Of a stretch of 64,000 nt of DNA, positions 4,689 through 21,441 are shown piece by piece. The stretch comes from Candidatus Latescibacterota bacterium (GTDB taxonomy: Bacteria; Latescibacterota; UBA2968; GCA-2709665). Positions within the stretch are counted from its first letter, which is position 1; each line of letters opens with the position of its first letter. The notes beneath the pieces are model-generated. The model worked only from the letters and a program-made list of their open reading frames with translations, ran no database searches and had not been told where the DNA came from. The stretch covers positions 4,672,001-4,736,000 of the forward strand of contig OZ220733.1 of NCBI GenBank assembly GCA_965116875.1, given 5' to 3'. Position numbers and translations under genes: made by a program.

Positions 4689-5936
4689 ATGTCTCACCCG
4701 GACGTACGGCGACACATGCGGGTCCGTCATACGGATTGGGGCGACGCCGTGCGTATCGACCTCAATCAGTTGGGTTCGCAACTGCCCGCTTACGACATAC
4801 AGGGCGCAACGTGGTCGGAGACTACCGGCGAGGCATTACGCGACGAATGGTCGGAGTCCCAGAACGTGGCGCTCTGCGACACGATGACGGAGGTCGCCGC
4901 CGGGTTTGGAGGGGGTTTTGGTTCCTTTGCCGAATGGACGGTTCTGCACAACAAGCGGTACGACGGCACCCACATGCGCGATGTGCGGCGGGCTCGGTTC
5001 GGTCACGGGTACCGCGCCGCGATCACCACGCTTGGCTGGGCGCATTCAAGGACCGGCCTCTCCACGTGCATTCAGGCAGTGGGTTATGTGCCCAGACCCG
5101 GCGCGACGTTCCATCAGGCCATATGGCGTCCGGAATCATTGTACGATACGGAGTTCATGGCGCTTGCCCCCGCCGTCATTACCCGGTTCGGCGGAGGCCG
5201 GCAGATCCATCTGTCGGGCGTTGTCGCGTGGGACGAAGACATCAATCCGCTGTTCGAAGGACAACCGGAACGCCAGATCCGCCACGTGTTCGATCTCATC
5301 CAGGACGTTTTTGAGGAGGGGGGCGGCTCGCTGAGCGACGTCGTGCGTCTCCGTCCGTTCGCCCACTGTACGAGGATCGCGCGCCTCATCCGCAAGGAAG
5401 TAGACCGGCGCTGGTCCGGCCGTCCGCGACCCGTCGTTATGATGTCGGACAGCCGGCGTTTCGGCGATTCACCCAGCCTGTTCGCGGAAATACAGGTCAT
5501 GGGGGTCCTGTCCGACAGCGATAGCGAGGTGCGTCACTCGGAGACCCGGATTCCCGCCGGAGTCCCGGATGATGGCGCCTTGCGGATTCGCCGCTGCCGC
5601 GCCCGTGGCTGGGAACTGATCCAGATGGGCGAACTGCGGGCGCCCCGGGGCACCGACCCGTGCAGGGAGGCGGAGCAGGTTGCGGAACAGCTGGCAACCG
5701 TCATCGATCGGCTGTCGCTTTCACGGAGAGAAATCTGTCTGACGTTTGCCTACGTCAGTTCACCGGAAACCGCCGAGGCGTTCCCGGAAATCGTCTCCCA
5801 GGCGGTGCCGGCGGAAACGGTGCACGTGTTGCCGTGCCCCGCAATGCCTGAACTGGATGGGCGCCGCGTCAAGGTGGAACTGACAGCCGGACGGCGCGTG
5901 GATCGTGTCTCGTCAACGGAATCGGAAAACCCCTGA
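4689..5936 (+). CDS. RidA/YjgF-like multidomain protein (chorismatase-like fold possible)
   Basis: IHLSGVVAWD...QIRHVFDLIQDVFEEGGGSLSDVVRLR...LFAEIQVMG; second degenerate domain ending RVKVELTA; AAGGAG SD upstream. Confidence 0.55.
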   Translation: MSHPDVRRHMRVRHTDWGDAVRIDLNQLGSQLPAYDIQGATWSETTGEALRDEWSESQNVALCDTMTEVAAGFGGGFGSFAEWTVLHNKRYDGTHMRDVRRARFGHGYRAAITTLGWAHSRTGLSTCIQAVGYVPRPGATFHQAIWRPESLYDTEFMALAPAVITRFGGGRQIHLSGVVAWDEDINPLFEGQPERQIRHVFDLIQDVFEEGGGSLSDVVRLRPFAHCTRIARLIRKEVDRRWSGRPRPVVMMSDSRRFGDSPSLFAEIQVMGVLSDSDSEVRHSETRIPAGVPDDGALRIRRCRARGWELIQMGELRAPRGTDPCREAEQVAEQLATVIDRLSLSRREICLTFAYVSSPETAEAFPEIVSQAVPAETVHVLPCPAMPELDGRRVKVELTAGRRVDRVSSTESENP

Positions 5937-6063
5937 TACCATTGGCCGCAATCGGGCGGTTCCCCACGCGTTTCCTGCGTATCCTTGCGGAACGATCTTC
6001 ACCGCTGTCCGGTCTAAAGCACAGTGTACGGTTCTCCCTCGGAACACGAAAAAGGGGCTGGCA

Positions 6064-6969
6064 ATGCGTATCGTTGCGACTGGATTGACGAAGATCTATC
6101 CGAAGGGGACCGTGCCCGCGCTGGACAACGTGGACCTCGAGATCGGAAAGGGGACCTTCGGGCTGCTCGGACCGAACGGCGCGGGAAAAACCACGCTCAT
6201 CAAGATACTTTCAACTCAGATGGCGCCAACGTCCGGCCATGTAAGCGTGGGTGCCTGGGATCTGCAGCGGAACCGCTCCGAGGTTCGTCGCAGTCTGGGA
6301 TATCTTCCCCAGCACTTCGGTTCGTATCCGCAACTGACGGCGTGGGAGTTTCTGGACTATATGGACCGGCTGGCGGCCGGACGGAGACAGAACGGCAGAA
6401 AAGGGCGTGTGCGCGATGCGCTGGAGAACGTGGGTCTTTACGACGTGCGCGACCGCCGGACCGGCACGTTTTCCGGGGGAATGATGCGGCGCCTCGGGAT
6501 TGCGCAGGCCATTGTGGGCGATCCGGAAATCCTGGTCGTCGATGAGCCCACCGTGGGACTCGATCCGGAAGAACGCATTCGGTTCCGGGGAATCCTTGCC
6601 CGGTTGAGTCGGGACCGGGCCATCCTGATTTCAACCCACATCGTGGGCGATATTTCAAGTACCTGCGATGATCTGGCGGTGCTGAACACAGGGCGGATCG
6701 TCTACAGGGGATCTCCCCAGGCGCTGGTTGATCGCGCCAATGGCAAGACGTGGCGCCTGCAGGCGGACGATGCCGAATTCGAATCGATATCCCGGAAGTT
6801 TCTTGTCGTGACGGTCGCGGTGGACGGCGGCCGGATGGACCTCAGGTTCGTGGGCGATGCCCGGCCGCCTGCAAACTCCGAACCGGTACCACCGAATCTC
6901 GAAGACGCGTACGTGTATTTTATGGGTATGGAGAATCCTGAACGGGACGCAGGAGCGCAAGGATCATGA
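6064..6969 (+). CDS. ABC transporter ATP-binding protein (ABC-2/DrrA type)
   Basis: Walker A GPNGAGKT, signature FSGGM, Walker B VVDE, H-loop STH. Confidence 0.95.
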   Translation: MRIVATGLTKIYPKGTVPALDNVDLEIGKGTFGLLGPNGAGKTTLIKILSTQMAPTSGHVSVGAWDLQRNRSEVRRSLGYLPQHFGSYPQLTAWEFLDYMDRLAAGRRQNGRKGRVRDALENVGLYDVRDRRTGTFSGGMMRRLGIAQAIVGDPEILVVDEPTVGLDPEERIRFRGILARLSRDRAILISTHIVGDISSTCDDLAVLNTGRIVYRGSPQALVDRANGKTWRLQADDAEFESISRKFLVVTVAVDGGRMDLRFVGDARPPANSEPVPPNLEDAYVYFMGMENPERDAGAQGS

Positions 6970-9900
6970 ATACGGTCTTCACCATATTGTCCGTAGCCAG
7001 ATACGAGCGCAAAATGCTGATGCGAACAATCCGGTTTCGCATCCTGGGCGGTATCGGCGTACTCATCCCCGTTGTCCTGGGTATCGGCGTGGCGATCGCG
7101 GAATCCAGAGGCGTCGAATTCGAATCCGTCAGCGGAATCGGCGCCTATATGCCCTTCTTCGTCTACAGCCTCCTCCAGACCGTGGTGATCGCGTTTATTG
7201 TGGGAGATTTCAGGGCGGCGGATGAACGCGCGGGAATCTACGAGGTGGTTGCGGCGCGGCCGCTGTCTACAGCCGAACTGGTCATGGGCAAATATCTGGG
7301 GGTACTGGGTGCGCTGATCACGCTGAGCCTGATTGTGCTGGTGCTCAGCCTGGGGGTGCAGGCGGCCAAAATCAGCATTACGGGCGCCCCGTTTGCGATT
7401 CGACCCTATCTGACGTACCTGCTTCTGCTGAACCTGCCGGGGCTGATTTACATGTCCGCCCTTACGTTCTTCCTCGGGGCGGTGCTGCGCCGGCAGGCCG
7501 CGGTGACCGTGCTGACCATCGCGTATGTACTGATTGTCCTCCTGTTCCTCGGACGCCGATATGGCGGGGTCTACGACTTCGGCGCGTTCTTCGCTCCTGT
7601 GTTCTACTCGGATATGCTCGGCCTCGGCGATATTCGACGCGTCGTGGAAATCCGGTTCTTCTACGCCCTGCTTGCCCTGTTTTTCTTCGGCCTGTCAATC
7701 GACCGGTATCCGCGGCTGCCTCAATCCCGGGCCTGGCGCAGGTTCGGCCGGTGTCTGACTGCCGGCGGTTTCGCTGCCGCGCTGGGTCTCTACCTGTATA
7801 TTGAAAACCGCGACGCCTCAGACCTCGCGTACAGGACAGCGCAGCTGGAAGTACATGAGAGATACGCCGAACAGCCAACCGTGGCTGTAACGCATTACAC
7901 GCTCGACCTGGATCTTGCCGCAGACCGGATGCCCCTGCGGGGCACGGCGGTTCTGCGCGTTTCCAACCCTCATTCCGTTCCGCTCGACACGCTGGTGTTC
8001 AGTCTCAACCCGGGATTGAGACTGCGATCCGTGAGTGTGCGAAGCGGAGAGGACGCTGCCGTGAACTGGAGGCGTGAAACCGCCGTCGTACGGGTCGGCC
8101 GGATGCTCCGGCCTGACAGCACCGCGACGCTGGCGTTCGTATACGACGGTTCGATTGACCTCAGCGGATTCGATCTGAAGCGCCATCCGGATGCGAGGCG
8201 TCTGAAGAAACGGCGCGCGGGGCCGGGAAGAAAGGGCGATCTGACCGCCTGGATTCGCGGGAATTCCGTATTCCTGCCGCCCCGCAGCCGGTGGTATCCT
8301 TCGCCGGGCGTGGATTACGGACACGAGGATGGCAGACCCGTGTCCTTCGCCACCGCGGATTTGGATATCTCTCTTCCGGCGGGTCTGGAGGTTGTTACCC
8401 AGGGTGTGCCGGTCAGCCGGAAGGCGAAGGGCGATCGGGAGGTCCATTCGTGGAAAGCGCGTCGCCCCGTACCCTTTCTTTCGCTCAACGCTGGCGTCTA
8501 CCGTGTCTTCCAGGCCGAAATCCATGATATCCAATGCGCCGTTTACGTTCATCCGGCCCATGCCAGGCAGGTCACCTTCTTCGAAGACGCCAGGGACGAC
8601 GCCCTCGAAACGCTGGGCGAAATCCTGGACAGCGTTGAACAGGAAACCGGCCTGACCTATCCCTACGAACGCCTGTCAGTTGTGGAGGTGCCGTTCCAGG
8701 TACAATGGTATTACGACGGATGGGAGGAAGCCGGAGGTCTCGTGCAGCCGGGCGTGCTGATGCTGGAAGAGGACGTCCTGATGCGGCTCAATCTGCAGCG
8801 GCGCCTGAAATGGATGCAGCGGCGGCAGAGACGCAACGACGACCCCGCGAGGATAAAGCGGGATCTGCTGGTCAGCGCGGTCCTGCGCACGTTTCTTGCC
8901 CGGGAATCGTCTCAAAGTGGCGTCTACCGGAGTCCAGTGGCGCACCTCTGGTCCTTCAACAAGGGCTTCGAAGGCGAACACTACTCCCTGCTCAAGCGCG
9001 GAATGCCCGTCTATATTCAGCAACATCTCGAGACCAGCCTGCAGCAAAGCCTGTATTCGCGGCGTGGCAGGTTCCGGGGTCTGTTCCGGCGCAACAGGGG
9101 CGCGCGAGGCGTCTCCTGGGATACGGTAACGACAAAGATGCGCCAGCGTTCCTTCGCGGAGCTGGACCCGGATGCCGACGAGGAACTCTACCGGGCGGTC
9201 GTCGACGCCAAGGGCGCCTCCATGTTCGGGATGATGCAGGCCGTGGTGGGTGACGAGACGTTCAGAGACGTGGTCAGCGGTTTCGAGGCGTCAAACCGGC
9301 ACGCGGCGGTCGACTTCGAGTCGTTCGAACGCGCGGCCGTCGGAGATTCCTCCAGCCGGGCCGAACGACCCAACCTGCATCGCCTCGTCAGCGACTGGCT
9401 GCACGGCACACAGGTTCCGGGATATACGCTCACCAGGGCAAAGGCGTACAAAGTGGACGATGGGTGGGGAATGATCGTGTATCAGGTCGTCGTGCGGATC
9501 CGAAACGGAGAACCGGGGCGCGGATTCGTCCAGATTCGAGCGATGGGGAGGGAGGACGAGGCGGTGAAGGGCGTTGAGATCGAGGGTGGGCAGGAAGTCG
9601 AGGTGGGGTTGATTCTCTGGGAACGGCCGTCGAGAGTCAGCGTCGAGCCGTTTTTTGCAAGAAACCGCCGCGTTCTGATGGCGCCGCTGCGCATACCCGA
9701 GCAGCCGATGGACGGTTCCGCCACGACCTACGTGAGAGAGGTCGCCCCGGATGAGACGGGATTGACCGAGATCATCGTGGACAACGACGACGAAGGCTTC
9801 GAAATGCCGGTCCGGAGGGTGCGGCGTTATTTCCGACCGCAGTTGAAAGGGGACAACTGGCAGGAACGACAGATGCCGTTTTCATTCGGCCGGTATGAGA

Positions 9901-10364
9901 CCAACTACAGGTGGAAGAAACCCGGCGACGGCGCGCAACCGGCGGTCTGGACGGCCCGTTTGCCGCACAGCGGGGATTACGACGTCTACTACTATTTCGT
10001 TCATCCCCGGTTCGCCAGGCGTCTGCGAATGGCCACGGAATTCAGTCTGGCGGTCTGCCACGGCGGCGAGGTGGATACACTGGCGGTCGAAGCGGACAGG
10101 CTCAAGGGCGGCTGGAACGTGATGGGTCGATACCGATTCGAGGGTGGGGAGTTGGCCCGCGTCGAACTGTCCGACCGGGCAAACGGGCGCCTCTATGCCG
10201 ATGCGGTGCGCTGGAGGTACGTGGATCCCGATCACCCGGAAGAGGTGTATGAAGAAGATCTTCCGACGTGGAATTTCGGTCGGGGCCGTCGGGGCGGCGA
10301 CCGGGGCGGGCGAGGGGGCGGCAGCCGGAGCGGCGGAGGGCAAACGCGGGGAAGAGGTTGGTAA
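6966..10364 (+). CDS. ABC-2 permease fused to a degenerate M1-aminopeptidase-like domain and a C-terminal beta-sandwich (golvesin/CBM-like) domain
   Basis: N-terminal TM block with ELVMGKYLG; HYTLDLDL, FSLNPGL, YPYERLSVVEVP, KGASMF..VGDETF M1-like motifs; no HExxH; C-terminal IIVDNDD...ADAVRW and an RGG tail. Confidence 0.7.
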   Translation: MNTVFTILSVARYERKMLMRTIRFRILGGIGVLIPVVLGIGVAIAESRGVEFESVSGIGAYMPFFVYSLLQTVVIAFIVGDFRAADERAGIYEVVAARPLSTAELVMGKYLGVLGALITLSLIVLVLSLGVQAAKISITGAPFAIRPYLTYLLLLNLPGLIYMSALTFFLGAVLRRQAAVTVLTIAYVLIVLLFLGRRYGGVYDFGAFFAPVFYSDMLGLGDIRRVVEIRFFYALLALFFFGLSIDRYPRLPQSRAWRRFGRCLTAGGFAAALGLYLYIENRDASDLAYRTAQLEVHERYAEQPTVAVTHYTLDLDLAADRMPLRGTAVLRVSNPHSVPLDTLVFSLNPGLRLRSVSVRSGEDAAVNWRRETAVVRVGRMLRPDSTATLAFVYDGSIDLSGFDLKRHPDARRLKKRRAGPGRKGDLTAWIRGNSVFLPPRSRWYPSPGVDYGHEDGRPVSFATADLDISLPAGLEVVTQGVPVSRKAKGDREVHSWKARRPVPFLSLNAGVYRVFQAEIHDIQCAVYVHPAHARQVTFFEDARDDALETLGEILDSVEQETGLTYPYERLSVVEVPFQVQWYYDGWEEAGGLVQPGVLMLEEDVLMRLNLQRRLKWMQRRQRRNDDPARIKRDLLVSAVLRTFLARESSQSGVYRSPVAHLWSFNKGFEGEHYSLLKRGMPVYIQQHLETSLQQSLYSRRGRFRGLFRRNRGARGVSWDTVTTKMRQRSFAELDPDADEELYRAVVDAKGASMFGMMQAVVGDETFRDVVSGFEASNRHAAVDFESFERAAVGDSSSRAERPNLHRLVSDWLHGTQVPGYTLTRAKAYKVDDGWGMIVYQVVVRIRNGEPGRGFVQIRAMGREDEAVKGVEIEGGQEVEVGLILWERPSRVSVEPFFARNRRVLMAPLRIPEQPMDGSATTYVREVAPDETGLTEIIVDNDDEGFEMPVRRVRRYFRPQLKGDNWQERQMPFSFGRYETNYRWKKPGDGAQPAVWTARLPHSGDYDVYYYFVHPRFARRLRMATEFSLAVCHGGEVDTLAVEADRLKGGWNVMGRYRFEGGELARVELSDRANGRLYADAVRWRYVDPDHPEEVYEEDLPTWNFGRGRRGGDRGGRGGGSRSGGGQTRGRGW

Positions 10365-10423
10365 TCCGCTGTAGACCAGCGAATGATAACCATTATATGA
10401 GGTGCAACTTGAACAGAAAAACC

Positions 10424-11491
10424 ATGAACGGTTATTGGATGGTATTCATGGCTGTTGCCCTTCTGGCCGGATGTGGCGGGCAGACCGAACAGCGTTCCGT
10501 GGATCTGACCGTCCCCGTAACGGTTCAGGCGGTGCGTCTGGACACCATGGAGGCGACGGTGGCGGCCACGGGTACGCTCCGGCCCGTCAGAGAAGCCCGT
10601 ATTCAGACCGAGGTCGAAGGAATTATCCAATATGTGGCGCGGGGCGTTGGAGGACGGCCGACGGAGGGAATGCGGGTGACCCGGAACCAGGTAATCGCCC
10701 GGCTAGTGAACAAGGAGCTTGTCGTAAACGCCCGCCTGGAGTCCCGTGATCTTGCTCGCGCCTCAGCGGAGCGTACGTTGCGCGAGCAGGAGGTACTCGT
10801 CAACCGGAAACTGGGCACGGAGAGAGACCTGGAAGAAGCGCGCCAGGCCCTTGCGGAGGCCGAATCCAACTATGAAGACGCTCTCGTTCAGATCGCCAAG
10901 ACGACGATCCGGACGCCAATCGCCGGCTTTCTGACAGGATTGGCCGATATTACCGAGGGCACGATGGTGGAGGCCCGCACGACCATTGCAACGGTGATGG
11001 ATTACCAACAGGTACTCGTCGATCTCAAAGTTCCGAACGCATATATCGCAACCGTTTCAACGGGCCAGGTCTTGCGCGTGGAGAACTACGCATTGCCCAA
11101 CCGACGGTTTCTGGGGACCGTCAGGGTGGTGGACCCGGCCATCGATCCGGCGACGCGTACGTTCCGGGTGGTGGGGGCGGTGAAAAACCCGAACCGGATG
11201 TTACGGCCGGGGATGTTCGTGAAGGCAGAGATTGTCACAGAGTCTCACGAAGACGCGGTGGTAATCCCGCGACGATTCGTCCTGACGCGCCAGAATCGCA
11301 AGGTGGTGTTCGTCGAGGAGGAGGGAAGGGCGCAGATGCGCGACGTGGAGCTGGGACTGGAGGGATCGGAACAGGTCGAGATTCTCGAAGGGCTTGAACC
11401 TGGCGAGCGCCTCATTACCAGCAACTACGAGACGCTGCGGTCCCGTACGCGCGTGCGTGTAACCGGGGAGGACGCTGCGGGGCGGCGGTGA
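10424..11491 (+). CDS. RND efflux periplasmic adaptor (membrane fusion lipoprotein)
   Basis: Lipobox LLAGC, IRTPIAG, IDPATRTF, LRPGMF, GLEPGERLI. Confidence 0.92.
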   Translation: MNGYWMVFMAVALLAGCGGQTEQRSVDLTVPVTVQAVRLDTMEATVAATGTLRPVREARIQTEVEGIIQYVARGVGGRPTEGMRVTRNQVIARLVNKELVVNARLESRDLARASAERTLREQEVLVNRKLGTERDLEEARQALAEAESNYEDALVQIAKTTIRTPIAGFLTGLADITEGTMVEARTTIATVMDYQQVLVDLKVPNAYIATVSTGQVLRVENYALPNRRFLGTVRVVDPAIDPATRTFRVVGAVKNPNRMLRPGMFVKAEIVTESHEDAVVIPRRFVLTRQNRKVVFVEEEGRAQMRDVELGLEGSEQVEILEGLEPGERLITSNYETLRSRTRVRVTGEDAAGRR

Positions 11492-11774
11492 TGAATACGC
11501 GCTGCGAACGTCCGTGGTCCTGACAGTCCATTGCCGACTCAAGAGGTACCGTCCGCGGCGAACGAAACATCGTGAGCGTTCTCGATTGGACCCCTTTGGG
11601 GCCCAGGGACTTCGTGTGGGCCTTCCGGAGGGGTTTTTTCACCCGTCGCCAGACCTCGTCTCCGGGCCGTGTCACATCTGCTCGAGGACGTTTGTTCCTT
11701 CGATCGCGGTCATACATGTAAACCACGGTTTCTGAGCCAAAGAAACCAGCGCTCATTCAAAAAGGGCCAATACG

Positions 11775-14700
11775 ATGTCATTGCCCGAATTTTCCACGAA
11801 ATATCCCGTGACGGTCGCGATGGCGACGTTGGCGGTAGCGCTCCTTGGCTGGATCTCGCTGGACCGGCTCGACGTGGATCTCTTGCCCGACCTGCGTTCT
11901 CCCGTGATCACTGTCGACCTGCGATTTCCCGGAAAGACGCCCAGGGAGATGGAGGAACGGTACGCGCAGCGCCTGGAAGGGGACATCGGTACGGTGCGGC
12001 ACGTAAAACGCGTCCATTCGGTGTCCCGCTCCGGGCAGGCCGTGGTGATCGCGGAGTTCGAGTGGGATGCGGACATGGATTTCGCGGTTCTCGACGTGCA
12101 GAAGAAAGTGGCGCGGTACGCATCGGACCCGGATATCACGAGTCTGGACGTGACGCAGGAAGACCCGCAGGCATTGCCGGTGATGCGTCTGGCTGTTTCG
12201 GGGGCGGACTGGCAGGATCCCGATGAATTGCTGGGCAGCGTGGAGACGATCATCCGGCCCAAGCTCGAAGGGTTGCCGGGGGTGGCTTCGGCTGAAATCG
12301 AAGGGGGAGCCGAAAAGGAGATCCGCGTCATACTGGATTCCTATCTCCTGCAAGCATTCGGCGTGAATTCCGCGACGGTGGTCTCGCGGATTCGTGAAGC
12401 GAATTCGGATGTCTCCGGAGGAACGTTGAAGGACGGGCAGCAATCCTACCTGGTGAAGGGCCTGGGAAGGCTGACCGACCTGGCGGACGTGAACAGCCTG
12501 GTTGTGGGCGAGCGCAGCGGCGGATCTTCGAACGGCGGCGAAAACGCCTCGACCGAACGCGTGCCGGTCACGGTCAGCGACGTGGGTACCGTGGCCCTCC
12601 GGTATAAGGATAGGGAAACCATCGTCCGTCTGGACGGGATGGAGTGCGTAGGGCTTTCGGTCTACAAGGAAGCCGGCGCGAACACCTCTTCAGTGGTTAA
12701 CGGGGTACTGCAGGAACTGGAGAGCCTGGAGGCCGATCTGGCCGGCATCCGGTTTACGGTGGTGGAAAACCAGGCACGCTTTGTCGAACGTGCGGTAAAC
12801 GAAGTCGAAGAGGCGGCAGTTATCGGCGCATTGCTGGCCGTGGGCGTGCTGCTTGCCGCGCTCCGGCAATGGACCGCCACGCTGGTGATCGGTCTTGCCA
12901 TTCCGATTTCCGTTCTGGCGACATTTACGCTGATGTATTTCCAGGGGTTGACGTTGAATGTGATGACCCTGGGCGGTCTCGCGCTCGGCGCCGGAATGCT
13001 GGTGGATAACGCCATCGTCGTGATTGAGAACATCTACCGGCGCCTCGAAAGCGGTGAATCAGCCGCAGAAGCCTCCGTCAGAGGCGCCGGCGAGGTCGGC
13101 GTGGCGATACTGGCGTCCACACTGACGACCGTGTCCGTGTTTCTACCCATCGTTTATCTTCACGGTCTGGCCGGCGAACTCTTCAAGGAACAGGCATGGA
13201 CGGTGGCGTTCTCACTGGTTTCGTCTCTCGCGGTGGCGATGTCGGTGGTCCCCATGATGACCGCACGGCTTTTCAGGCGGTATCCACGCAGGTCCACCGG
13301 GGTCGCCGGGGCGCGGACGTTCCGGCGTTTTCTGGACGCGTCGCTCAACCGTAAAGGCCGCACGACAGCGGTACTGGCAGCCTGCATTGCGGCCGCCTTC
13401 TATATGGCCGCGTCCATCCATACGTCGTTCATTCCCACGGAAGACGAGGGGGTACTCCACCTGGACCTCGCGATGCCGGAAGGCACGAGACTCGAGTCAA
13501 CAGACAGGGTGGCGAGACGCGTTGCGGCCATTTCGCAGGCGGTTGCCGGAGAGGAAGCCCGGCACATCTACCTGCGGGTGGGAACGGATCCGAACCGGTT
13601 CACGGCCGTTGGAGAGCCCACAGGCCCGAACCGGGCCGAACTGACGGTCGTCCTGGGCCCTCGGGCGGACCGCCGTGGCGTTACCGAGCTCACCGCCGCA
13701 CTGGATGCTGCCCTCCTGGACGTGCCGAATATCAAGGTGAACTATAGACTCCATAAATCTGCGTTGGAAGGACTTATACGTGGAGGCGCTGCACCGGTCC
13801 AGGTGGAAGTGAGTGGCGAGAACCTGATATTGCTTCGGGAACTGACGGCAGAACTGAAACGGCGCATGGATGCGTTGTCGACGGTATATAATGTTCGAAC
13901 CAGCTTCCAGGACGGGCAGCCCGAAGTGGACGTCGTGCTACGACCGGACGTCACCGCGGCGTTCGGCCTGACTTCACAAAACCTCGTGCGTGAACTCGAG
14001 CGCAGACTCGGCGGCGAGGAAGCCGGTGAACTGTCCAAAGACCAGCGCGAGCGAACCATCCGGGTGGGTTTCGCGGACGTGGATCTCCGTGAACTGGAAC
14101 ACGCCAGAATTGACGGCCCCGACGGGGCAATGCTCACACTGGGAGATCTCGCGGACCTTCGCGTGGTTCAGGGTCCAAGGGAAATCCTGCGTGACGGACA
14201 GCGCAGGGTGGGGAGGGTATCCGCGTTTCTGGCCGAAGGCATGGTCTTGAGCCAGGCGGCAGCGCAGATCAGGCAGGCGGTTGGGCAGATGGCCGTTCCA
14301 CATGGGTATCGTATAACGATCACCGGAGAGGAACGTGAACGGGCCGAATCATTCGGAGGCCTGCAATTCGCCCTCCTGTTGTCCGTGGTACTCGTCTACA
14401 TGGTCATGGCCTCGCTCTTCGAGTCTTTGCTGCATCCATTTACCGTAATGCTGACAGTGCCGTTGGCCGGCATCGGGGTGGTGTTCGCATTCTGGGGCCT
14501 TGGAGAGGCGTTTGGCGTGATGGCATTCATCGGAGCGATCATGCTGGGAGGCATCGCCGTGAACGACGCCATCATTCTGGTGGATCACATCAACCAGCTG
14601 CGGCGTAAAACCTCCGACGTCAGAACCGCCGTACTCCAGGGCGCGCAGGATCGGCTCCGACCGATCCTGATGACCAGCGCCACGACCATTCTGGCCCTGT

Positions 14701-14858
14701 TGCCCATGGCGGTGGGCGTGGGCGAAGGCGCACGTCTCCGGGCGCCGATGGCGGTGGCGGTCATCGGAGGACTGGTCACATCCACATTGATGACCCTGGT
14801 GGTGATTCCGGTTGTCTACGAACTGATCGAACGGCTCAGAAACAGGAGTGCGGCGTGA
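11775..14858 (+). CDS. RND (AcrB/AcrD/AcrF family) permease
   Basis: 1027 aa; GMLVDNAIVVIEN (TM4), RLRPILMT, AVIGGL. Confidence 0.95.
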   Translation: MSLPEFSTKYPVTVAMATLAVALLGWISLDRLDVDLLPDLRSPVITVDLRFPGKTPREMEERYAQRLEGDIGTVRHVKRVHSVSRSGQAVVIAEFEWDADMDFAVLDVQKKVARYASDPDITSLDVTQEDPQALPVMRLAVSGADWQDPDELLGSVETIIRPKLEGLPGVASAEIEGGAEKEIRVILDSYLLQAFGVNSATVVSRIREANSDVSGGTLKDGQQSYLVKGLGRLTDLADVNSLVVGERSGGSSNGGENASTERVPVTVSDVGTVALRYKDRETIVRLDGMECVGLSVYKEAGANTSSVVNGVLQELESLEADLAGIRFTVVENQARFVERAVNEVEEAAVIGALLAVGVLLAALRQWTATLVIGLAIPISVLATFTLMYFQGLTLNVMTLGGLALGAGMLVDNAIVVIENIYRRLESGESAAEASVRGAGEVGVAILASTLTTVSVFLPIVYLHGLAGELFKEQAWTVAFSLVSSLAVAMSVVPMMTARLFRRYPRRSTGVAGARTFRRFLDASLNRKGRTTAVLAACIAAAFYMAASIHTSFIPTEDEGVLHLDLAMPEGTRLESTDRVARRVAAISQAVAGEEARHIYLRVGTDPNRFTAVGEPTGPNRAELTVVLGPRADRRGVTELTAALDAALLDVPNIKVNYRLHKSALEGLIRGGAAPVQVEVSGENLILLRELTAELKRRMDALSTVYNVRTSFQDGQPEVDVVLRPDVTAAFGLTSQNLVRELERRLGGEEAGELSKDQRERTIRVGFADVDLRELEHARIDGPDGAMLTLGDLADLRVVQGPREILRDGQRRVGRVSAFLAEGMVLSQAAAQIRQAVGQMAVPHGYRITITGEERERAESFGGLQFALLLSVVLVYMVMASLFESLLHPFTVMLTVPLAGIGVVFAFWGLGEAFGVMAFIGAIMLGGIAVNDAIILVDHINQLRRKTSDVRTAVLQGAQDRLRPILMTSATTILALLPMAVGVGEGARLRAPMAVAVIGGLVTSTLMTLVVIPVVYELIERLRNRSAA

Positions 14859-17800
14859 TTCTCCCCGATCTTGCGGTCCGGCGGCCGGTGACGACGTCCA
14901 TGTTCTTCGCCGCATTCGCCATATTGGGCGTCGTGTCGTGGACGAGGCTTCCGATTCAACTCTTTCCCGAGCTGATCTTTCCCGAGGTGTTTGTCACGCT
15001 GACGCTGCAGGGCGCCTCTCCGGAACAGGTAGAGAGAGATCTGCTGATTCCGGTAGAAGGGGAGATCGGCAAGCTCGACGGCGTTCAGGAGATGGAATCG
15101 TTCGCGACGGCCAACCGGGGGGGAATCCGGATATCCTACGCCCCCGACGTGGATATGAAATTCGCCCTGCTTCAGCTGCAGAGCAACCTGAACAGATTGC
15201 AGCCGACATTGCCCGAGCGCACGCAGACCGATGTGCGCAGGTTCGACTCGACGGATTTCAGCAGCAGCATTATGGAGCTTCACGTGCTTGCCGACTGGGA
15301 CCTGAACTCGTTGCGTGAGTTCACGGAGGAAAAGATCCGACCCGAACTGGAGTCTGTCGACGGTGTTGTGAACGTATCTATAATGGGCGGGCGCCGCAGC
15401 GCCGTGGAAATCGTCCTTGATCCGTTTCTGCTGGAGGCGCATGGCCTTTCGGCGGGGCAGGTGCGGACGAGACTGAACAGCCATAACCGGAGGCGCGAGT
15501 ACCTGGGCCGGGTATTCGACGGGAACCGGGCCTATTCAGTGAGTATTCAGGGACAGTTCACGGACCTGCGTCAGATTCGCGACCTCGTTGTGAACGACGA
15601 CGGCACGCTCAGGCTGGGCGACGTTTCGCGGATCGCATACGGCCTTCAGGAACAGGCCGACCGGCACAGGGTCAATGGCAAACCGTCGGTCGGCGTACGA
15701 ATCCAGAAGGACGACGAAGCGAATCTGATCGAAGTGGCCGCGGCCGTGGAAGCCACCATCGGGCGGCTGAATCGGGACCTGGAAAGTGAAGGCGTGGAAC
15801 TGGGGGTGAGTTCCTCCCAGGCCGATTTGATGAACGGGGCGCTTTCCACCCTGAAACAGGCGGCCGTGGTCGGCGCCGTACTCGGACTGATCGTACTCTT
15901 TCTGTTTCTTCGTAACCTTCGCTTTGTATCGGTTCTCCTGCTGGCCATCCCGGTTTCACTCCTGATGACCTTCAATCTGATGTACCTGGGCGGACTGTCT
16001 GTCAACGTCCTGTCGCTTTGCGGTCTCGCCCTCGCGATGGGAATGCTTGCAGACAACGGCATCGTGGTGATGGAGAATATCTTCAAACACCACGAGCGAG
16101 GAAAATCGCCGGCTCGCGCTGCGCGTGACGGGGCTTCCGAAGTGGGGCGCGCCGTGGTCGCGGCAACGGCAACCACGGTAACCGCATTCCTGCCGGTTCT
16201 GTTTATCGAAAGCGATACGCGGGACCTGCTGCGCGAACTCGCGTTGTCCATGGCGTTTCCGCTCCTGGCGTCTCTGCTGGTTGCGCTTACGCTGGTTCCC
16301 GCCCTCGCCGTCCGCGCGTTGAGCCGGGAGGTCCGGCAGCCGCCGGACGTCCGCGGTCTGCTGGAACGGTACACCCTCCTGCTGAAGGCCGCCTTGCGCC
16401 ACCGCGCGTCGGTGGTCCTGGCCGTGGGTGGCGCTCTCCTGCTGACGCTCGTACTGGCTTTCTTCTACCTGCTTCAACAGCAGGTACGGAGAGAGGAGAC
16501 GCGCTTTACGGTTTACGTGAATCTGCCGGAAGGAGCCACGCTGGATGCCACGGATGAGGTGGTGAAACAGGTGGAAGCGTCCGTTCGGGAGGTGCCCGGA
16601 CTGGATCGGTTTACGACGTCGGTCCGGGAGGCCGAGGCCGACGTAACCGTCATGCTGCTCAACCGCTCCGACCGGCCCGCCGGTATCTCGATGGATGAAA
16701 TCAAGGAACGGCTGGACGAGAAACTGCAGAATGTACAGGGTGGCGTCGTCGGTTACGAACCCAGGGCGCGGGCGGGGAGGGGCGGCCGCGGGCAGGGGAT
16801 CGGGCAACGACGGAGACGCGGTTCCGGAGGCTTCGATCTGACCGGGGCCGCGCCGAACGAGCAGGTTGTGGTACGCGGATATGACTTTACGATACTGACG
16901 ATGCTTGCGAACGACGTGTCATACCGGCTCGAGGAACTCGAGGAAGTGGATGCCAACAGCGTACGCGCGGACGCCGAGCGGAGTTCGCCCGAGGTCCAGG
17001 TGATACCCGAGGCGGCCGCCCTGTTCGACCGGCGGCTCGGCGCGCAGGAGGTTCTCGCCGCAATGGGCGACACCCGATGGGACGGATTCCGCACAACCGT
17101 TCCGTTTCTGTTGCCCGACGCGACCGAGATACCCATCGAGGTACGTACGATTGAAGAGGAGGACCGCGACCGGTACGGGCTGGCCGAATTCCGTCGTTCG
17201 CGTATTCTGAATCAGGACGGCCACTATGTGCCTCTTGACGAAGTCGCGCGGGTCCGGACTGACGAGGGCAGAAGCAGCCTGCTTCGGACCGATCAGGCCC
17301 GCCGGCTCGTGGTTACCTACAGGTTTCCTTCGGAAATCCTGGATTCACAGCCCCGGTTGGAACTTGCGAGACGGGTCGTGCGAGCGACGCTGCAGGATAT
17401 GGTGCTGCCTGAGGGTTATTCTATCGAAATCATCGAGGCGCACGAGGAGATGATCTACTATTGGATGATGGCAATCGCCGCGGTACTGATCTATATGATT
17501 CTGGCGTCGCTGTTTGAATCGCTCTCCTCTCCGATCATCATCCTGTGTACGCTCCCGCCCGCCGCCATCGGCTCCTGCTGGGCGCTGATGATGTCAGGCA
17601 CGGGCCTGAGCCAGCAGGAGGGCCCCATGGCGCTCCTGGGATTCATCGTCCTGCTGGGTATTGCCGTAAATAACGGGATCATCCTGGTCGACGCGGTCGG
17701 TGTACTCAGGTCCCGGTTCGGCTACCGCCGTGAACGCGCTGTACTGACCGCGGCGAGGTCCCGCCTGCGACCCATCCTCATGACGACGGCCACGACGCTG

Positions 17801-19567
17801 CTCGGGGTTCTTCCGCTGGCGCTGGAATTCGGCGGCGATTTTGAGATCTGGCCGCCGTTTGCGATCACGGTGCTGGGAGGATTGTCGCTTTCCATGATGT
17901 CCACGCTGATCCTGATTCCGGTTGTGTATATGGGACTGGATCAGATCGGCGACTGGCTTGCCGGAATCGGGTTGGTTGGAGTCACGCTCTCACTGCTGGC
18001 CACTGCCGCGGCCGGCTATGGCGTTTACGTCCGATATGAGAGCATTTTCTGGTTGAGCCTGTCGATATTACCAATCTGGGGCGCATTTCTGGCCGCTGCG
18101 TGGATCATTCAACGGGTGTATTACGCCCGGGTCGCCGCCCGCCGCGTGTCGAGCGCCGTGCACTCCATACAACTGAGGAACCTTACCAAGATTTACGGCG
18201 CTCCCGGGCGTTTCACGAGGGAGTGGGCGCGCACGGAGCGCCGGCGAGGGCGGCTGATGAAAACGGGCCTGGAGCCGAAGGACCGCAAGGCGGTTCGCGA
18301 TGCCCTCATCTGGAAACTGCCAATGCTCGCGCTGTTGTCGTTATTCGCGACCTATTTCGAAGACGAGATCTGGATCTATCTGCACGCGTTGGCTTTGGCC
18401 TTTATGGCCTCCCACGTGGGTCGATGTTTCGGAGAACTCCGCCATTGGCATCTGCCGGCGCTGCCGGCCCGTGTCGTCCGACTGCTGCACAAAGTCGCAC
18501 TACCGCTGGCATTGGTCGCCTATGTACACTGGCGGCTGGACCTGCTTTCGATCACGCTTGCCACTTGCGGGACGTGGGCGGGGTATCGTCTGGCGCGGCG
18601 GCTCGCCGACAGGGTGCGGACGGGCGAAATCAGCCCCGATGACCTGACCGGACGTCTTGTGCGGCCGCGCCGCTGGATTTATCGATTGGCGTCGGCCCTT
18701 CCTCTCATTGGCGTTCCACGGCCGGAATTTCGAGCGCTGGCAAACGTCAACCTGGAAATCGGCAGGGGCATGTTCGGTCTGCTGGGTCCGAACGGCGCCG
18801 GAAAGACCACGTTGATGCGTATTCTCTGCCGGGTACTCGAACCCAGCTACGGGTCCATTCTGATCGACGGCCGAAACATCCTGAATAAAGGCTCGATTCA
18901 CGGACTGATCGGGTACCTGCCACAGCACTTCGGCAACTACGGCCACCTTTCCGCATACGAGTTTCTGGAGTACAGAGCGCTGCTCGAGGGCTTCAAGGAC
19001 AGGAAGATCCGCGAGACCCGGGTGATCGAATCTCTGGAGCATGTCAATCTGATCGAACGAAAAGACGATCCCATCGGTTCATTTTCAGGCGGGATGAAGC
19101 AGCGCCTTGGGATCGCGCAGACGCTCCTGCATGCCCCGCTGATCGTCGTCGTGGACGAGCCCACGGCGGGTCTGGATCCACTGGAGCGTATCCGGTTTCG
19201 CAACCTGCTCGCCAGATTGAGTCAGGATCGAATTGTCATTTTTTCCACGCATATCGTGGAAGATATCTCGGGAAGCTGCAATCGGCTGGCGGTACTGGAC
19301 CGGGGGAGATTGCTGTATACGGGAACGCCGGGGGAGATGAGAATTCTGGCGGCGGGCCGGGTGTGGGACGCGGTGGTCTCGGACGGTCGCTTTTCCGAAA
19401 TGGAAGGTGAATTGAAGCTCATCTCGCACCAGCGAACCCCCGACGGCGTCCGGATGCGTTTCCTGTCGGAGCGCGCGCCGGTCGGCATCGGCGCGCAGAG
19501 CGTGGATCCAACCCTGGAGGACGCATATCTATACCTGCTTGGAGGAGGGGAGGGACAGCCGTGCTGA
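14855..19567 (+). CDS. RND permease fused to a C-terminal ABC ATPase
   Basis: Full RND (GMLADNGIVVMEN, RLRPILMT) continuing in frame through extra TM segments into an NBD with GPNGAGKT, GYLPQ, FSGGM, VVVDE, STH. Confidence 0.9.
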   Translation: MILPDLAVRRPVTTSMFFAAFAILGVVSWTRLPIQLFPELIFPEVFVTLTLQGASPEQVERDLLIPVEGEIGKLDGVQEMESFATANRGGIRISYAPDVDMKFALLQLQSNLNRLQPTLPERTQTDVRRFDSTDFSSSIMELHVLADWDLNSLREFTEEKIRPELESVDGVVNVSIMGGRRSAVEIVLDPFLLEAHGLSAGQVRTRLNSHNRRREYLGRVFDGNRAYSVSIQGQFTDLRQIRDLVVNDDGTLRLGDVSRIAYGLQEQADRHRVNGKPSVGVRIQKDDEANLIEVAAAVEATIGRLNRDLESEGVELGVSSSQADLMNGALSTLKQAAVVGAVLGLIVLFLFLRNLRFVSVLLLAIPVSLLMTFNLMYLGGLSVNVLSLCGLALAMGMLADNGIVVMENIFKHHERGKSPARAARDGASEVGRAVVAATATTVTAFLPVLFIESDTRDLLRELALSMAFPLLASLLVALTLVPALAVRALSREVRQPPDVRGLLERYTLLLKAALRHRASVVLAVGGALLLTLVLAFFYLLQQQVRREETRFTVYVNLPEGATLDATDEVVKQVEASVREVPGLDRFTTSVREAEADVTVMLLNRSDRPAGISMDEIKERLDEKLQNVQGGVVGYEPRARAGRGGRGQGIGQRRRRGSGGFDLTGAAPNEQVVVRGYDFTILTMLANDVSYRLEELEEVDANSVRADAERSSPEVQVIPEAAALFDRRLGAQEVLAAMGDTRWDGFRTTVPFLLPDATEIPIEVRTIEEEDRDRYGLAEFRRSRILNQDGHYVPLDEVARVRTDEGRSSLLRTDQARRLVVTYRFPSEILDSQPRLELARRVVRATLQDMVLPEGYSIEIIEAHEEMIYYWMMAIAAVLIYMILASLFESLSSPIIILCTLPPAAIGSCWALMMSGTGLSQQEGPMALLGFIVLLGIAVNNGIILVDAVGVLRSRFGYRRERAVLTAARSRLRPILMTTATTLLGVLPLALEFGGDFEIWPPFAITVLGGLSLSMMSTLILIPVVYMGLDQIGDWLAGIGLVGVTLSLLATAAAGYGVYVRYESIFWLSLSILPIWGAFLAAAWIIQRVYYARVAARRVSSAVHSIQLRNLTKIYGAPGRFTREWARTERRRGRLMKTGLEPKDRKAVRDALIWKLPMLALLSLFATYFEDEIWIYLHALALAFMASHVGRCFGELRHWHLPALPARVVRLLHKVALPLALVAYVHWRLDLLSITLATCGTWAGYRLARRLADRVRTGEISPDDLTGRLVRPRRWIYRLASALPLIGVPRPEFRALANVNLEIGRGMFGLLGPNGAGKTTLMRILCRVLEPSYGSILIDGRNILNKGSIHGLIGYLPQHFGNYGHLSAYEFLEYRALLEGFKDRKIRETRVIESLEHVNLIERKDDPIGSFSGGMKQRLGIAQTLLHAPLIVVVDEPTAGLDPLERIRFRNLLARLSQDRIVIFSTHIVEDISGSCNRLAVLDRGRLLYTGTPGEMRILAAGRVWDAVVSDGRFSEMEGELKLISHQRTPDGVRMRFLSERAPVGIGAQSVDPTLEDAYLYLLGGGEGQPC

Positions 19568-20283
19568 ACTGGCGGGAACTGCTGTTGACCACGTGGCGGC
19601 TTTTTCGGCTGAGCTGCAGGATTATCTTTCACAGGAAACTGATATTCATGGCCCTGGGCATCCTTGTCTATTTTGCCGCCATGTACGCATTTGCGGTCTG
19701 GCGTCCCGACGAAGGATTCGGCGTATCGAAAGCGCTCCATGTTCTGGTTGAAATTCCCGGCATCGCACTGGCCATCTACCTGACGATGGACCTCGTGACG
19801 GGCGAACGAGACAGGAACACACTGGAGACGTTGTTCAGCACAACCTCGTCGCACTACCGGATCTGGACGATTCGAATGGTGGGGGTCTATCTGGTGCTGG
19901 CGGGAACGCTGATGGGAATGACGGTTGTCGCCTACTTTTTCTTCGCGGAACTGCCGATCCTCCGGGGCGGGTTGAACGCCTTCCTGCCGGCGTGCTTTGC
20001 CGCGGGGCTCACGTTTTACTTTTCCGTTCTCTGTCGAAGCGGAAACGCATCCGCCATGCTCGCTACGGGCGTGATGGGCCTGATGCTGGTTGTCTCACAG
20101 TCAATGCCCGACTCACCTTTCGTGCTCTTTCTGGACAGTTTCGATCCACCGGTGGGAATGGAAGACACGTTGTGGGGCGACCGGGTGTTGCTGAATCGCC
20201 TGGCGGTGGCGCTGCTGTCGGGTCTGCTGCTCTATGTCGGCCTTCGCAAGATGGAATCCAGGGAGCGGCTGGTATCTTCGTAG
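19561..20283 (+). CDS. ABC-2 type permease
   Basis: About six hydrophobic helices; GERDRNTLETLFST coupling-helix-like motif; overlaps the upstream stop. Confidence 0.75.
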   Translation: MLNWRELLLTTWRLFRLSCRIIFHRKLIFMALGILVYFAAMYAFAVWRPDEGFGVSKALHVLVEIPGIALAIYLTMDLVTGERDRNTLETLFSTTSSHYRIWTIRMVGVYLVLAGTLMGMTVVAYFFFAELPILRGGLNAFLPACFAAGLTFYFSVLCRSGNASAMLATGVMGLMLVVSQSMPDSPFVLFLDSFDPPVGMEDTLWGDRVLLNRLAVALLSGLLLYVGLRKMESRERLVSS

Positions 20284-20298
20284 GGGTGGTTGTCCTTC

Positions 20299-21441
20299 CT
20301 ATTCCTTCCGTACATCCAGCCGGACCTTGCGGGGCTCCACGTCTACGACCGTCAGGTCCGTCCCGTGCCTGATCGACTCGATGCCGAATTCAAAGGTCCT
20401 GCGACCGAACCTCACGTAGTTGGCATCGATTGCAAGTTGGAAGTCGCCCACGGACGCCAGCAGTATGGCGCGGCGCGGGCCCTTCACGGTCACGTTGACG
20501 ACGGGGGGCGTGACACCCTGCAGCGCATAGCCGCCCGGCAGATTTTCCACGCCGACAGCCACTTCGTACGTCGTTTCCTGTACCGCGCTGCCGGGTACCA
20601 GGAATATCCACGCGCCGAATGCCAGCGCGAATGAGAGCAACCCTTCCGCAATGCGCCGCACCAGCCGGCTCCGTCCGTTTCTCCTTCCGCCGGCGACCGC
20701 ATGCTGCGCGTGTTCCTGCAATCTGGCAAGCAGTTCGTCAGGATCGTTGACAACTTCCAGTCGCCCCTGAAGCGCCACTGAGATGGTGCCGCGCTCCTCG
20801 GAAACAACCAGGCACAGGGCATCGCTGCGTTCGGCCAGGCCCAGCGCCGCGGCGTGACGAGTGCCTCCAGGTCCCAGTTCGGCGCGGTTTTCCGATAGCG
20901 GGAGATGTACCGCGAAACGCTCCAGTCTGTCTTGTCTCATCACCAGGGCCCCGTCGTGGCCCGCCGACGACGTACCGAACAGGCTGTCGATCAGTTCTTC
21001 GCTGATGGTCGCCTGCAGTACGATCCCGCCCTGCAGGAGCCTGTCCAGCGGTTCCTGCCCGGGCAGGACCACGAGGGCGCCCCGCCGCTTCGCCGCCAGC
21101 TGATGCATCGCACGAACCAGCACCGCCAGACTGCCTCCGCGGGGGCGCGATATCCGTCTGCCCAGGCCCAATGCGGCAATCTGTTCGAAGAGCCGCCTCA
21201 GATCGTCCTGAAAGACAACGACGAGCAGCACAACCAGCACTGCAAAGAAGCCCTGGAATATCCACGCCGTGAGTTGCAGCTCGAACTGCTGCGCCAGAAG
21301 ATAGAATACGCCCAGAAACGCGAGCCCGATCAGCGCCATTCGCGCGTGCATCCTCCGGGTCCAGGCCAACAGGCCCCAGAACAGGACACCCACGACGGCT
21401 ATGTCCACAAAATCGGTAAATGCGATCTCCAGCAGGGCCAT
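20299..21441 (-). CDS. cdaA: Diadenylate cyclase (CdaA/DisA_N) with C-terminal YbbR/CdaR-like domain
   Basis: N-terminal TMs, VVFQDDLRR, HDGA, GTRHAAA, VSEERG; C-terminal TM plus PPVVNVTVKGPR. Confidence 0.85.
   Translation of the reverse strand: MALLEIAFTDFVDIAVVGVLFWGLLAWTRRMHARMALIGLAFLGVFYLLAQQFELQLTAWIFQGFFAVLVVLLVVVFQDDLRRLFEQIAALGLGRRISRPRGGSLAVLVRAMHQLAAKRRGALVVLPGQEPLDRLLQGGIVLQATISEELIDSLFGTSSAGHDGALVMRQDRLERFAVHLPLSENRAELGPGGTRHAAALGLAERSDALCLVVSEERGTISVALQGRLEVVNDPDELLARLQEHAQHAVAGGRRNGRSRLVRRIAEGLLSFALAFGAWIFLVPGSAVQETTYEVAVGVENLPGGYALQGVTPPVVNVTVKGPRRAILLASVGDFQLAIDANYVRFGRRTFEFGIESIRHGTDLTVVDVEPRKVRLDVRKE

Follow-up and report, generated by a model that had tools for sequence, protein, structure and literature searches.

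Relation to Described Export Systems

Resistance-nodulation-division (RND) exporters, which are proton-driven, and ATP-binding cassette (ABC) exporters, which are ATP-driven, have been treated as separate solutions, and cooperation between them has so far been inferred only kinetically. Here we describe a locus at which the two are covalently joined. In a 64,000-nucleotide stretch of a Candidatus Latescibacterota genome (GenBank contig OZ220733.1, positions 4,672,001 to 4,736,000; hereafter "the window"), six co-oriented genes at 6064-20283 (+ strand) include one that encodes an RND permease domain (RND2) and an ABC nucleotide-binding domain (NBD2) as a single protein of 1570 amino acids (aa). 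The other five genes of this cassette encode a free ABC ATPase (NBD1), two putative permeases (TMD1 and TMD2, for transmembrane domain), a membrane fusion protein (MFP) and an unfused RND permease (RND1), to which most relatives add an outer-membrane factor (OMF).

Like this cassette, MdtABC-TolC and MuxABC-OpmB have two different RND genes standing in tandem behind a single MFP gene. Among solved structures RND2 comes closest to MdtB (E 6.1e-85), and the top named NCBIfam matches of the cassette RNDs include MdtC and MdtB. However, the cassette RNDs score far below the MdtB and MdtC cut-offs, one of them carries six extra helices and an ABC ATPase, and a free ATPase and two permeases are added to the set. 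They further differ in having Asn at the positions equivalent to AcrB D408 and K940, and RND1 and RND2 are not sister groups in a quick tree. Heterotrimers are rare among HAE-1 pumps, MdtBC being one example (PMC8277102, in excerpt).

MacAB-TolC shares with the cassette an ABC ATPase and an MFP in one operon (with an OMF in the relatives of our cassette) and a permease with a large periplasmic domain, but the cassette has two full RND permeases besides, its NBDs are of the DrrA/ABCA type, and its permeases are not of the MacB/FtsX type—specifically, no such domain was matched in any of the six cassette proteins (Pfam, E<=0.01). In the sequence family of their NBDs, the cassette ATPases instead resemble the ABC-2/type V exporters (DrrAB, GldAFG, NosFY and the eukaryotic ABCA lipid exporters), whose permeases are six-helix proteins like those of the cassette, although the ABC2_membrane matches of the latter are sub-threshold. 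What sets the cassette apart from these exporters is that NBD2 is fused to an RND permease and that its first strand and A-loop lie about 200 residues from Walker A, with a four-helix insertion between. ABC-2 systems with an MFP partner exist in Escherichia coli (YbhGFSR and YhiI-RbbA-YhhJ). Proteins known only by the database name "ABC transporter permease/M1 family aminopeptidase" (as in Atlas cluster names) combine an ABC-2 membrane domain with an M1-like domain, as TMD1 does; TMD1 differs from them in lacking the catalytic motifs, in carrying a Golvesin_C-type domain and in always standing in an RND cassette. Finally, the logic of the relay proposed below is that of functional two-step efflux, in which an inner-membrane pump feeds a tripartite RND pump (PMC8277102, in excerpt), except that there the pumps are separate, unlinked and cooperate kinetically, whereas here they are covalently joined and co-inherited.

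Full-text searches found no paper that describes an RND-ABC fusion (subscription journals, supplements and TCDB lay outside their reach), nor did a search for such terms in the first 300,000 characters of the 2021 Chem Rev review on tripartite pumps turn one up; this agrees with the prediction from which the analysis started, made from the letters of the window, which had known of no characterized example. In databases the fusion proteins are called "efflux RND transporter permease subunit" or "ATP-binding cassette domain-containing protein." Carried together with its partners in Latescibacterota-labeled genomes, Calditrichota, Bacteroidota and others, a covalent RND::ABC protein is a natural "Rosetta stone," as its retention across phyla suggests that selection holds both machines together. 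Because cultured carriers exist, the system is tractable, which opens to study how a substrate passes from an inner-membrane exporter to a tripartite pump, whether ATP hydrolysis might be coupled to an RND cycle and what a membrane-inserted ABC domain looks like.

An RND Permease and a Split ABC ATPase in One Protein

The open reading frame (ORF) list and its translations place the six genes, all on the + strand, in the order NBD1, TMD1, MFP, RND1, RND2::ABC, TMD2, in agreement with the original prediction:

6064-6969 (+): NBD1, free ABC ATPase of the DrrA/GldA/ABCA-like group (ABC-2 type); ATG at 6064, ORF open from 5905
6966-10364 (+): TMD1, 1132 aa; ABC-2-like membrane domain (~7 transmembrane helices, TM), M1-peptidase-like domain and C-terminal Golvesin_C-type beta domain
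10397 or 10424-11491 (+): MFP, periplasmic adaptor lipoprotein with an LLAGC lipobox in its translation
11775-14858 (+): RND1, unfused RND permease, 1027 aa
14855-19567 (+): RND2::ABC fusion, 1570 aa, a single frame without a stop
19561-20283 (+): TMD2, 240 aa; small permease of six helices with weak ABC-2 likeness, coupled in translation to the fusion gene

Stops and starts had been described as mostly overlapping, which holds for three of the five junctions (4 nucleotides at 6966-6969, 4 at 14855-14858 and 7 at 19561-19567) and fails for TMD1-MFP (a gap of ~30-60 nucleotides) and MFP-RND1 (283 nucleotides). The 1570-aa fusion itself is borne out. ACR_tran matches residues 5-1027 with 617.9 bits (Pfam cut-off 28; profile positions 3-1019 of 1021), and ABC_tran matches residues 1296-1438 in the same stop-free frame with 93.8 bits. 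Its parts are as follows:

14855-17935 (+): RND2 domain, residues 1-1027
17957-18118 (+): extra hairpin TM13-TM14, residues ~1035-1088, directly after RND TM12 (hydropathy, alignment)
18161-18208 (+): detached first strand (beta1) and A-loop of NBD2, IQLRNLTKIYGAPGRF, with K1112 and Y1114
18302-18604 (+): TM15-TM18, four-helix membrane insertion inside NBD2, residues ~1150-1250 (hydropathy)
18716-19567 (+): remainder of NBD2, from beta2 and Walker A to the C-terminal domain, and the stop codon

The split NBD2 with its membrane insertion, and the two-helix hairpin that precedes NBD2, are new beyond what had been predicted. The hydrophobic segments of TM13 and TM14 (~1042-1058 and 1069-1085) appear both in the hydropathy of the window's protein and in the family average. 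IQLRNLTKIYGAPGRF sits in the cytoplasmic, Lys/Arg-rich stretch that follows TM14 (17 Lys/Arg per 60 residues), and then come TM15-18, whose family-average hydrophobic peaks fall at 1151-1167, 1172-1188, 1208-1224 and 1231-1247 and whose loop charges are consistent with an in-out-in topology. After TM18 a long basic segment leads into an ATPase part that aligns with NBD1 from the second strand on.

The missing first strand is found upstream of the insertion. A motif I-x-[IV]-x-x-L-x-K-x-Y stands at the start of NBD1 and its orthologs, 27-28 aa before Walker A (a spacing taken from the 10 sequences with the motif; 2 of 12 gave none), and in the fusions it recurs at 189-229 residues from Walker A (median 202; 44 sequences that match the strict pattern). 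Its Lys and Tyr (i.e., the equivalents of K1112 and Y1114) are invariant in 56/56 fusions, and Y1114 is presumably the A-loop residue that stacks on adenine. The A-loop aromatic of ABC ATPases usually lies ~25 residues before Walker A, so that NBD2, at ~200, does not qualify as a contiguous ABC domain; by alignment and hydropathy it is complete but split in its first hairpin by a membrane insertion. Because the hairpin, the A-loop strand and the four-helix insertion sit between TM12 and the rest of NBD2, the ATPase would be pinned to the membrane beside the RND domain.

The linker that bears these six helices has no Pfam match of its own at E<=10, and none of the solved NBD chains has a counterpart that matched it. 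The possibility that it is a hidden ABC-2 permease was dropped, as hhalign against TMD2 gave a probability of 0.13%.

Conservation of the Fusion across Phyla

Of the 41 genomes from the window's order, 36 contain an end-to-end match to a 545-aa query made of linker and ATPase, each within an open frame of 1,353-1,941 aa. A contig end cuts the match in one more, and the other four have neither the fusion nor a gene of the NBD1 type. Across the window's phylum 82/168 genomes match at E<=1e-90, 73 of these 82 in open frames of >=1,500 aa and three with one internal stop. Matches extend to 22/86 genomes of the phylum of a Calditrichaceae metagenome-assembled genome (MAG), itself a carrier, and to 4/401 genomes in an even sample of Bacteroidota, so that the cassette is frequent in some phyla and scarce in others. 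Cultured carriers in Bacteroidota include Prolixibacter bellariivorans, Marivirga tractuosa, M. sericea, Draconibacterium mangrovi, Maribellus maritimus, Parabacteroides massiliensis and Bacteroides sp. 224. The closest named records (56-57% identity) are MAGs labeled Candidatus Latescibacterota.

The same architecture emerged from protein databases. When residues 1030-1570 were searched against 5.8 billion proteins, the 120 top matches all carried PF00873 and PF00005; they are mostly 1,540-1,650 aa long and are labeled Latescibacterota, Gemmatimonadota, Acidobacteriota or KSB1; in Atlas clusters of 64-143 members both domains occur in 100% of members. A scan with one genome per species gave 80 loci, of which the 51 with a match into the linker (L023-L073) were analyzed and 29 (L074-L102) were set aside, since they match the ATPase core only and are ordinary ABC ATPases that stand alone in many phyla. 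In 51/51 of the analyzed loci linker and ATPase lie directly behind an RND domain. Open frames of >=1,500 aa are found in 44 of them, five are ended by contig ends and two are broken, one near its start (L043, open frame 1454 aa) and one inside the linker (L068, 403 aa). In a locus of Marivirga tractuosa strain ac6 (L104) it is the TMD1 gene that lies in two frames (613 + 545 aa); these three breaks may be sequencing errors or decaying copies. Overall, the fusion frame is kept at 36-93% identity over several phyla, complete genomes and cultured strains included.

Assembly data agree. A 33-kb contig of the possible source run covers 17500-19300 without a difference, and three other runs yield short contigs that span the RND/linker and linker/ATPase junctions, each with 0-10 letter differences and free of indels. 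As a single frame is conserved in so many independent assemblies, chance and artefact are excluded and the fusion is a real gene. The bridging contigs come from runs labeled sponge metagenome (X2) and coral reef metagenome (X3, X4), and as they are near-identical to the window over parts of 17500-19300, close relatives occur in sponge and coral reef samples.

Unfused forms of the linker-bearing NBD were sought separately. Among proteins of <863 aa the linker query gave three matches only, two of them on contigs of 1.3-2.4 kb, and a linker-only phmmer search of 1.84 billion representatives gave 41, of which 14 are >=1,500 aa long with the linker at ~1020-1300 and the shorter ones start or stop inside the match, like contig-cut genes. 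A stand-alone form was thus not found in two large searches, although the linker diverges so fast (24-47% identity) that its absence is unproven. The third of the short matches, a 188-aa protein (P0128), shares 63-64% identity with linker residues 47-232 and is encoded on a 122-kb contig, where a contig end is no explanation for its shortness; a wrong gene call, a frameshift or a genuinely split form could each account for it. None of 72,556 plasmid records covers >=80% of the linker+NBD query.

The original prediction had proposed a domain-architecture search and read mapping over 17900-18800; the domain search and the bridging contigs both came out in its favor. It had also named what would count against it—an assembly artefact, homologs that are always separate genes, or ABC and RND genes that do not co-occur—and, each having been examined, none of the three holds.

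Some open frames of 1,768-2,612 aa in high-GC genomes were considered as RND1::RND2 fusions and rejected, the two RND genes of one such locus (L013) lying in different frames. Taxonomic labels are not uniform among carriers: a MAG of the window's class is labeled "uncultured Gemmatimonadaceae" (L035), genomes of the same order are labeled Candidatus Latescibacterota (L023/L024), and a locus labeled Eubacteriales (L061) has a full diderm-type cassette, OMF included.

Inheritance of the Cassette and Its Outer-Membrane Channel

The partners of the fusion are conserved along with it. The order TMD1, [OMF], MFP, RND1, RND2::ABC, TMD2 is found in 10/10 loci from other families and classes of the window's phylum, and the same order holds in 51/51 loci of other lineages as far as their contigs extend, and the synteny check that the prediction had proposed thus came out in its favor. 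Specifically, the MFP gene is present in 45 of these 51 (contig ends account for the remaining six) and a TMD2 match follows the fusion gene in 45. The co-occurrence of ABC and RND genes extends to NBD1, which in 37 fusion-bearing relatives is adjacent to the cassette in 31, on another contig in two, distant on the same contig in three and missing from one, a fragmented genome. In one relative (G022) the NBD1 ortholog, 68% identical, stands 1.35 Mb from the cassette. Since carriers branch in much the same way in the trees of all four parts, the cassette, judged by these trees, is inherited and moves as a unit.

The prediction that no TolC is encoded in the operon proved correct for the window's lineage and wrong for the cassette in general. 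No OEP/TolC gene was found by Pfam in or beside the window's operon. Elsewhere, a ~1.5-kb OEP/TolC-family gene stands between TMD1 and MFP (165.9 and 122.9 bits against Pfam in two relatives): its ortholog is present in 43/51 loci, the other eight comprising six ended by contig ends and two from the window's order, and within the window's phylum the gene is present in 7/10 loci (OEP confirmed by Pfam in two). It is absent from the window's cassette, the window's order and one neighboring genus, and has been lost in the window's lineage. An outer-membrane partner is still likely because the MFP aligns with essentially the whole RND-adaptor profile (TIGR01730 RND_mfp, positions 1-321 of 322, 189.8 bits at a cut-off of 94.9; HlyD_D23 of Pfam, 86.5 bits). 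Eight other OEP genes lie elsewhere in the window's genome, six of them adjoining other RND genes. The two away from RND genes are near 0.329 Mb and 3.646 Mb, and the genome holds at least 10 further RND genes.

Properties of the ATPases, RND Permeases and Membrane Proteins

NBD1 (ABC_tran, 107.1 bits) has its best NCBIfam matches in drrA (195.7 bits) and GldA (174.5 bits), both below their cut-offs. NBD2 is 46% identical to it over 279 aa (E 3e-79) and the motifs quoted earlier for the pair are present, so that the close resemblance claimed between fused and free ATPase stands; so does the claim that the fused NBD keeps Walker A, Q-loop, signature, Walker B and H-loop, all of which are present in the window's protein. 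Walker A, signature, Walker B with its Glu, D-loop and H-loop are intact in 12/12 NBD1 and 56/56 NBD2 orthologs, and the NBD2 Q-loop matches a strict pattern in 46/56, its Gln being invariant in the alignment (A3). As both ATPases keep their catalytic motifs, two active ATP sites are expected. The nearest solved NBDs to NBD2 are those of ABCA3, ABCA4, ABCA7 and ABCA1 (E 5.6e-62 and weaker), along with NosF and LptB. When 40 ATPase domains were placed in a tree by maximum likelihood, the 20 rows of NBD2 formed one group (support 98/98) and the 12 rows of NBD1 another (97/92), and the two jointly split (95/91) from eight other NBDs of the window's genome, a topology that would fit one duplication in an ancestral cassette and one origin of the fusion.

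Both RNDs belong to the RND superfamily by full-length PF00873 matches above cut-off (for RND1, 741.2 bits, profile positions 3-1020 of 1021). Below the superfamily they fall short of the HAE-1 subfamily level: against RND_permease_2 of NCBIfam the fusion scores 525.3 and RND1 617.7 bits (cut-off 1250), and MdtC (369.4 bits, cut-off 1774) and MdtB (334, cut-off 1584) are both matched far below threshold. RND1 and the RND2 domain are 32% identical, and the quick tree has each as one group (support 100) and not as the other's nearest relative.

The proton relay of AcrB consists of D407-D408-K940-R971 on TM4, TM10 and TM11 (AcrB numbering). Two of its residues are intact in the cassette, the TM4 Asp and the TM11 Arg each being invariant in RND1 (55/55) and RND2 (56/56); the Asp aligns with the first Asp of the MdtB DD pair and the Arg with that of R-x-R-P-I-L-M-T. 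The complete relay is absent from both RNDs, as only the D407 and R971 equivalents are invariant and the other two are replaced: the D408 equivalent is Asn in 51/56 RND2 and 51/55 RND1 sequences, and the K940 equivalent (TM10) is Asn in 56/56 and 51/55, respectively. This departure from AcrB is not specific to the fusion, RND1 having it too.

A Gly/Arg-rich low-complexity loop lies in the periplasmic part of RND2 (16772-16849, residues ~640-665), and 34/56 orthologs have a Gly-rich segment at the same alignment position; the RGG-rich tail of TMD1 (10272-10361) resembles it.

TMD1 matches Golvesin_C with 57.4 bits and, below cut-off, ABC2_membrane_3 (28.5; cut-off 31.6) and Peptidase_M1 (20.7). 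Among 11 orthologs these domains are found at E<=0.01 in 11, four and six, respectively, and a TMD1 profile compared with solved structures matches tricorn factor F3 (E 6.8e-10), the xanthan lyase C-terminus (E 7.3e-9) and aminopeptidases N. TMD1 was nonetheless rejected as an active M1 aminopeptidase, the likeness being a remote one between profiles: HExxH and GxMEN are absent from 14/14 full-length orthologs, the window's protein included, which upholds its earlier designation as a pseudo-peptidase. By hydropathy ~850 aa of the protein are predicted to be periplasmic. TMD2 matches ABC2_membrane_3 with 16.8 bits, again below the cut-off of 31.6, and 4/24 of its orthologs match ABC2_membrane_2 and 4/24 ABC2_membrane_3 at E<=0.01. 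Its profile matches none of the solved structures at E<=10, and hhalign finds it colinear with the TMD1 membrane domain over 208 columns, though the match is weak (E 8.6e-4, probability 23.5%).

A Proposed Relay from ABC Exporter to RND Pump and Its Alternatives

In line with the original prediction, which had inferred one heterodimeric ABC transporter tethered to a heteromeric RND, we propose that this is a conserved envelope-export cassette in which an ABC-2-like exporter and a heteromeric RND pump work as a relay, a reading for which we find belief and doubt evenly balanced. In such a relay, a pump of the tripartite type (MFP plus two different RNDs) would be covalently tied, through the C-terminus of RND2, to an ABC-2/ABCA-like exporter composed of NBD1, NBD2, TMD1 and TMD2, with NBD2 pairing with NBD1 on the TMD1/TMD2 permease pair. 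ATP hydrolysis would shift an amphipathic substrate from the cytoplasm or the inner leaflet to the periplasmic face, where an RND1/RND2 trimer, still proton-driven, would capture it and expel it through the MFP and an outer-membrane channel; in the window's lineage the genome has eight OMFs at other loci, one of which would have to serve as this channel. With a single fused subunit per trimer, NBD2 would pair with NBD1; two would permit an NBD2 homodimer. A physical ABC-RND assembly is suggested by the inventory of parts, by the fact that the fusion is obligate and by the way in which NBD2 is wired into the membrane, and the relay matches the accepted division of labor between inner-membrane exporters and tripartite pumps (PMC8277102, in excerpt).

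Several points weigh against this model. The symmetries of an RND trimer and an ABC dimer are mismatched, and two homodimeric units, (NBD1-TMD1)2 and (NBD2-TMD2)2, would suit the gene order equally well. The sub-threshold Pfam matches of TMD1 and TMD2 argue only weakly for their ABC-2 nature, and the large predicted periplasmic domain of TMD1 suits mechanotransmission better than a simple flippase. As both RNDs are without the equivalents of AcrB D408 and K940, their proton pathway, read from the alignments, is not canonical. The window's genome holds no ortholog of the cassette OMF (best tblastn E 0.05), and neighboring genes give no clue to the substrate, genes 3' of TMD2 being conserved only in close relatives.

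A bolder reading, toward which we are skeptical without thinking it far-fetched, is a dual-energized supercomplex. In it an RND heterotrimer would carry the membrane-wired ATPase, and the ATP cycle that NBD2 shares with NBD1 and both permeases would be linked mechanically, by way of TM13-18, to the cycle of the proton-driven RND. If true, it would be the first dual-energized tripartite export machine, and no earlier ABC domain would have had its beta1-beta2 hairpin interrupted by a transmembrane insertion.

It is also conceivable, if unlikely, that the ABC module moves no substrate across the inner membrane and acts by periplasm-facing mechanotransmission, as MacB, LolCDE and FtsEX do. The permease pair would then swing the pseudo-M1/beta-sandwich domain of TMD1, which would load or gate the RND pump with a periplasmic or outer-leaflet cargo (peptide-like or glycan-bearing). 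The ~850 predicted periplasmic residues of TMD1, its M1 fold signature without catalytic motifs and the xanthan-lyase-like C-terminal domain of 11/11 orthologs all suit this view, and conserved dead-enzyme domains usually bind rather than cleave. Tripartite pumps, the ABC-driven MacAB included, moreover draw their substrates from the periplasm (PMC8277102, in excerpt). However, Pfam detected no FtsX/MacB-type permease domain, the NBDs group with exporters of the ABCA/DrrA type and not with MacB, and hydropathy is the only pointer to a periplasmic M1-like domain.

Proteins that are linked in function yet mechanically independent are often found fused, and the two machines might accordingly be independent transporters of a shared pathway, with fusion and membrane anchor giving equal expression and co-localization and with neither hand-off nor coupling. 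The modularity of the cassette (NBD1 can be 1.35 Mb away and the OMF can be lost) is what such co-assembly would look like. We nevertheless judge it decidedly improbable: two large searches found no unfused linker-bearing NBD, the linker helices and their interfacial Trp residues are conserved across phyla beyond what a passive tether would need, and the tree shapes of all parts match.

More improbable again is an RND pump that is powered or gated by ATP, in which NBD dimerization would act on RND2 through TM13-18 and replace or supplement the proton-motive force. The NBD is indeed wired into the membrane right after RND TM12 and by a second insertion, and Asn stands at the D408 and K940 equivalents of both RNDs; yet the TM4 Asp and TM11 Arg are invariant in RND1 and RND2 alike, the loss of D408/K940 is shared with the unfused RND1 and so is not fusion-specific, and the two dedicated permease genes that are always present would be superfluous for an ATPase that drives an RND pump. 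An origin of the fusion in faulty assembly or annotation, or in a functionless lineage-specific accident, can be dismissed as vanishingly improbable, for nothing was found in its support beyond the two broken frames among 51 and the short protein P0128, against a single frame conserved across phyla and contigs of independent runs that bridge both junctions.

Surroundings of the Cassette

G+C content is even (0.59-0.65) over 1-26 kb of the window. The genes upstream of the cassette, which encode a DAO oxidoreductase and a RidA-like protein, are unrelated to it. Downstream, a CdaA-type diadenylate cyclase with a YbbR domain (20299-21552, - strand) and, preceded by a TPR protein, an 1180-aa protein with PQQ_2 and FG-GAP beta-propeller repeats (22452-25994, + strand) likewise seem unrelated. 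No Rfam family reached its gathering score in 4500-21500, and promoter-like sites (1 against 3.3 expected) and terminator-like sites (13 against 11.9 expected) in 5300-20800 were uninformative. In the non-coding MFP-RND1 gap (11492-11774) a T run comes after a G+C-rich stretch near 11590-11640, and no Rfam family matches the gap. Against the 283 nucleotides of this gap in the window, the MFP-RND1 spacing in same-order relatives is 6 nucleotides (e.g., in L023, where MFP ends at 3831 and RND1 starts at 3837).

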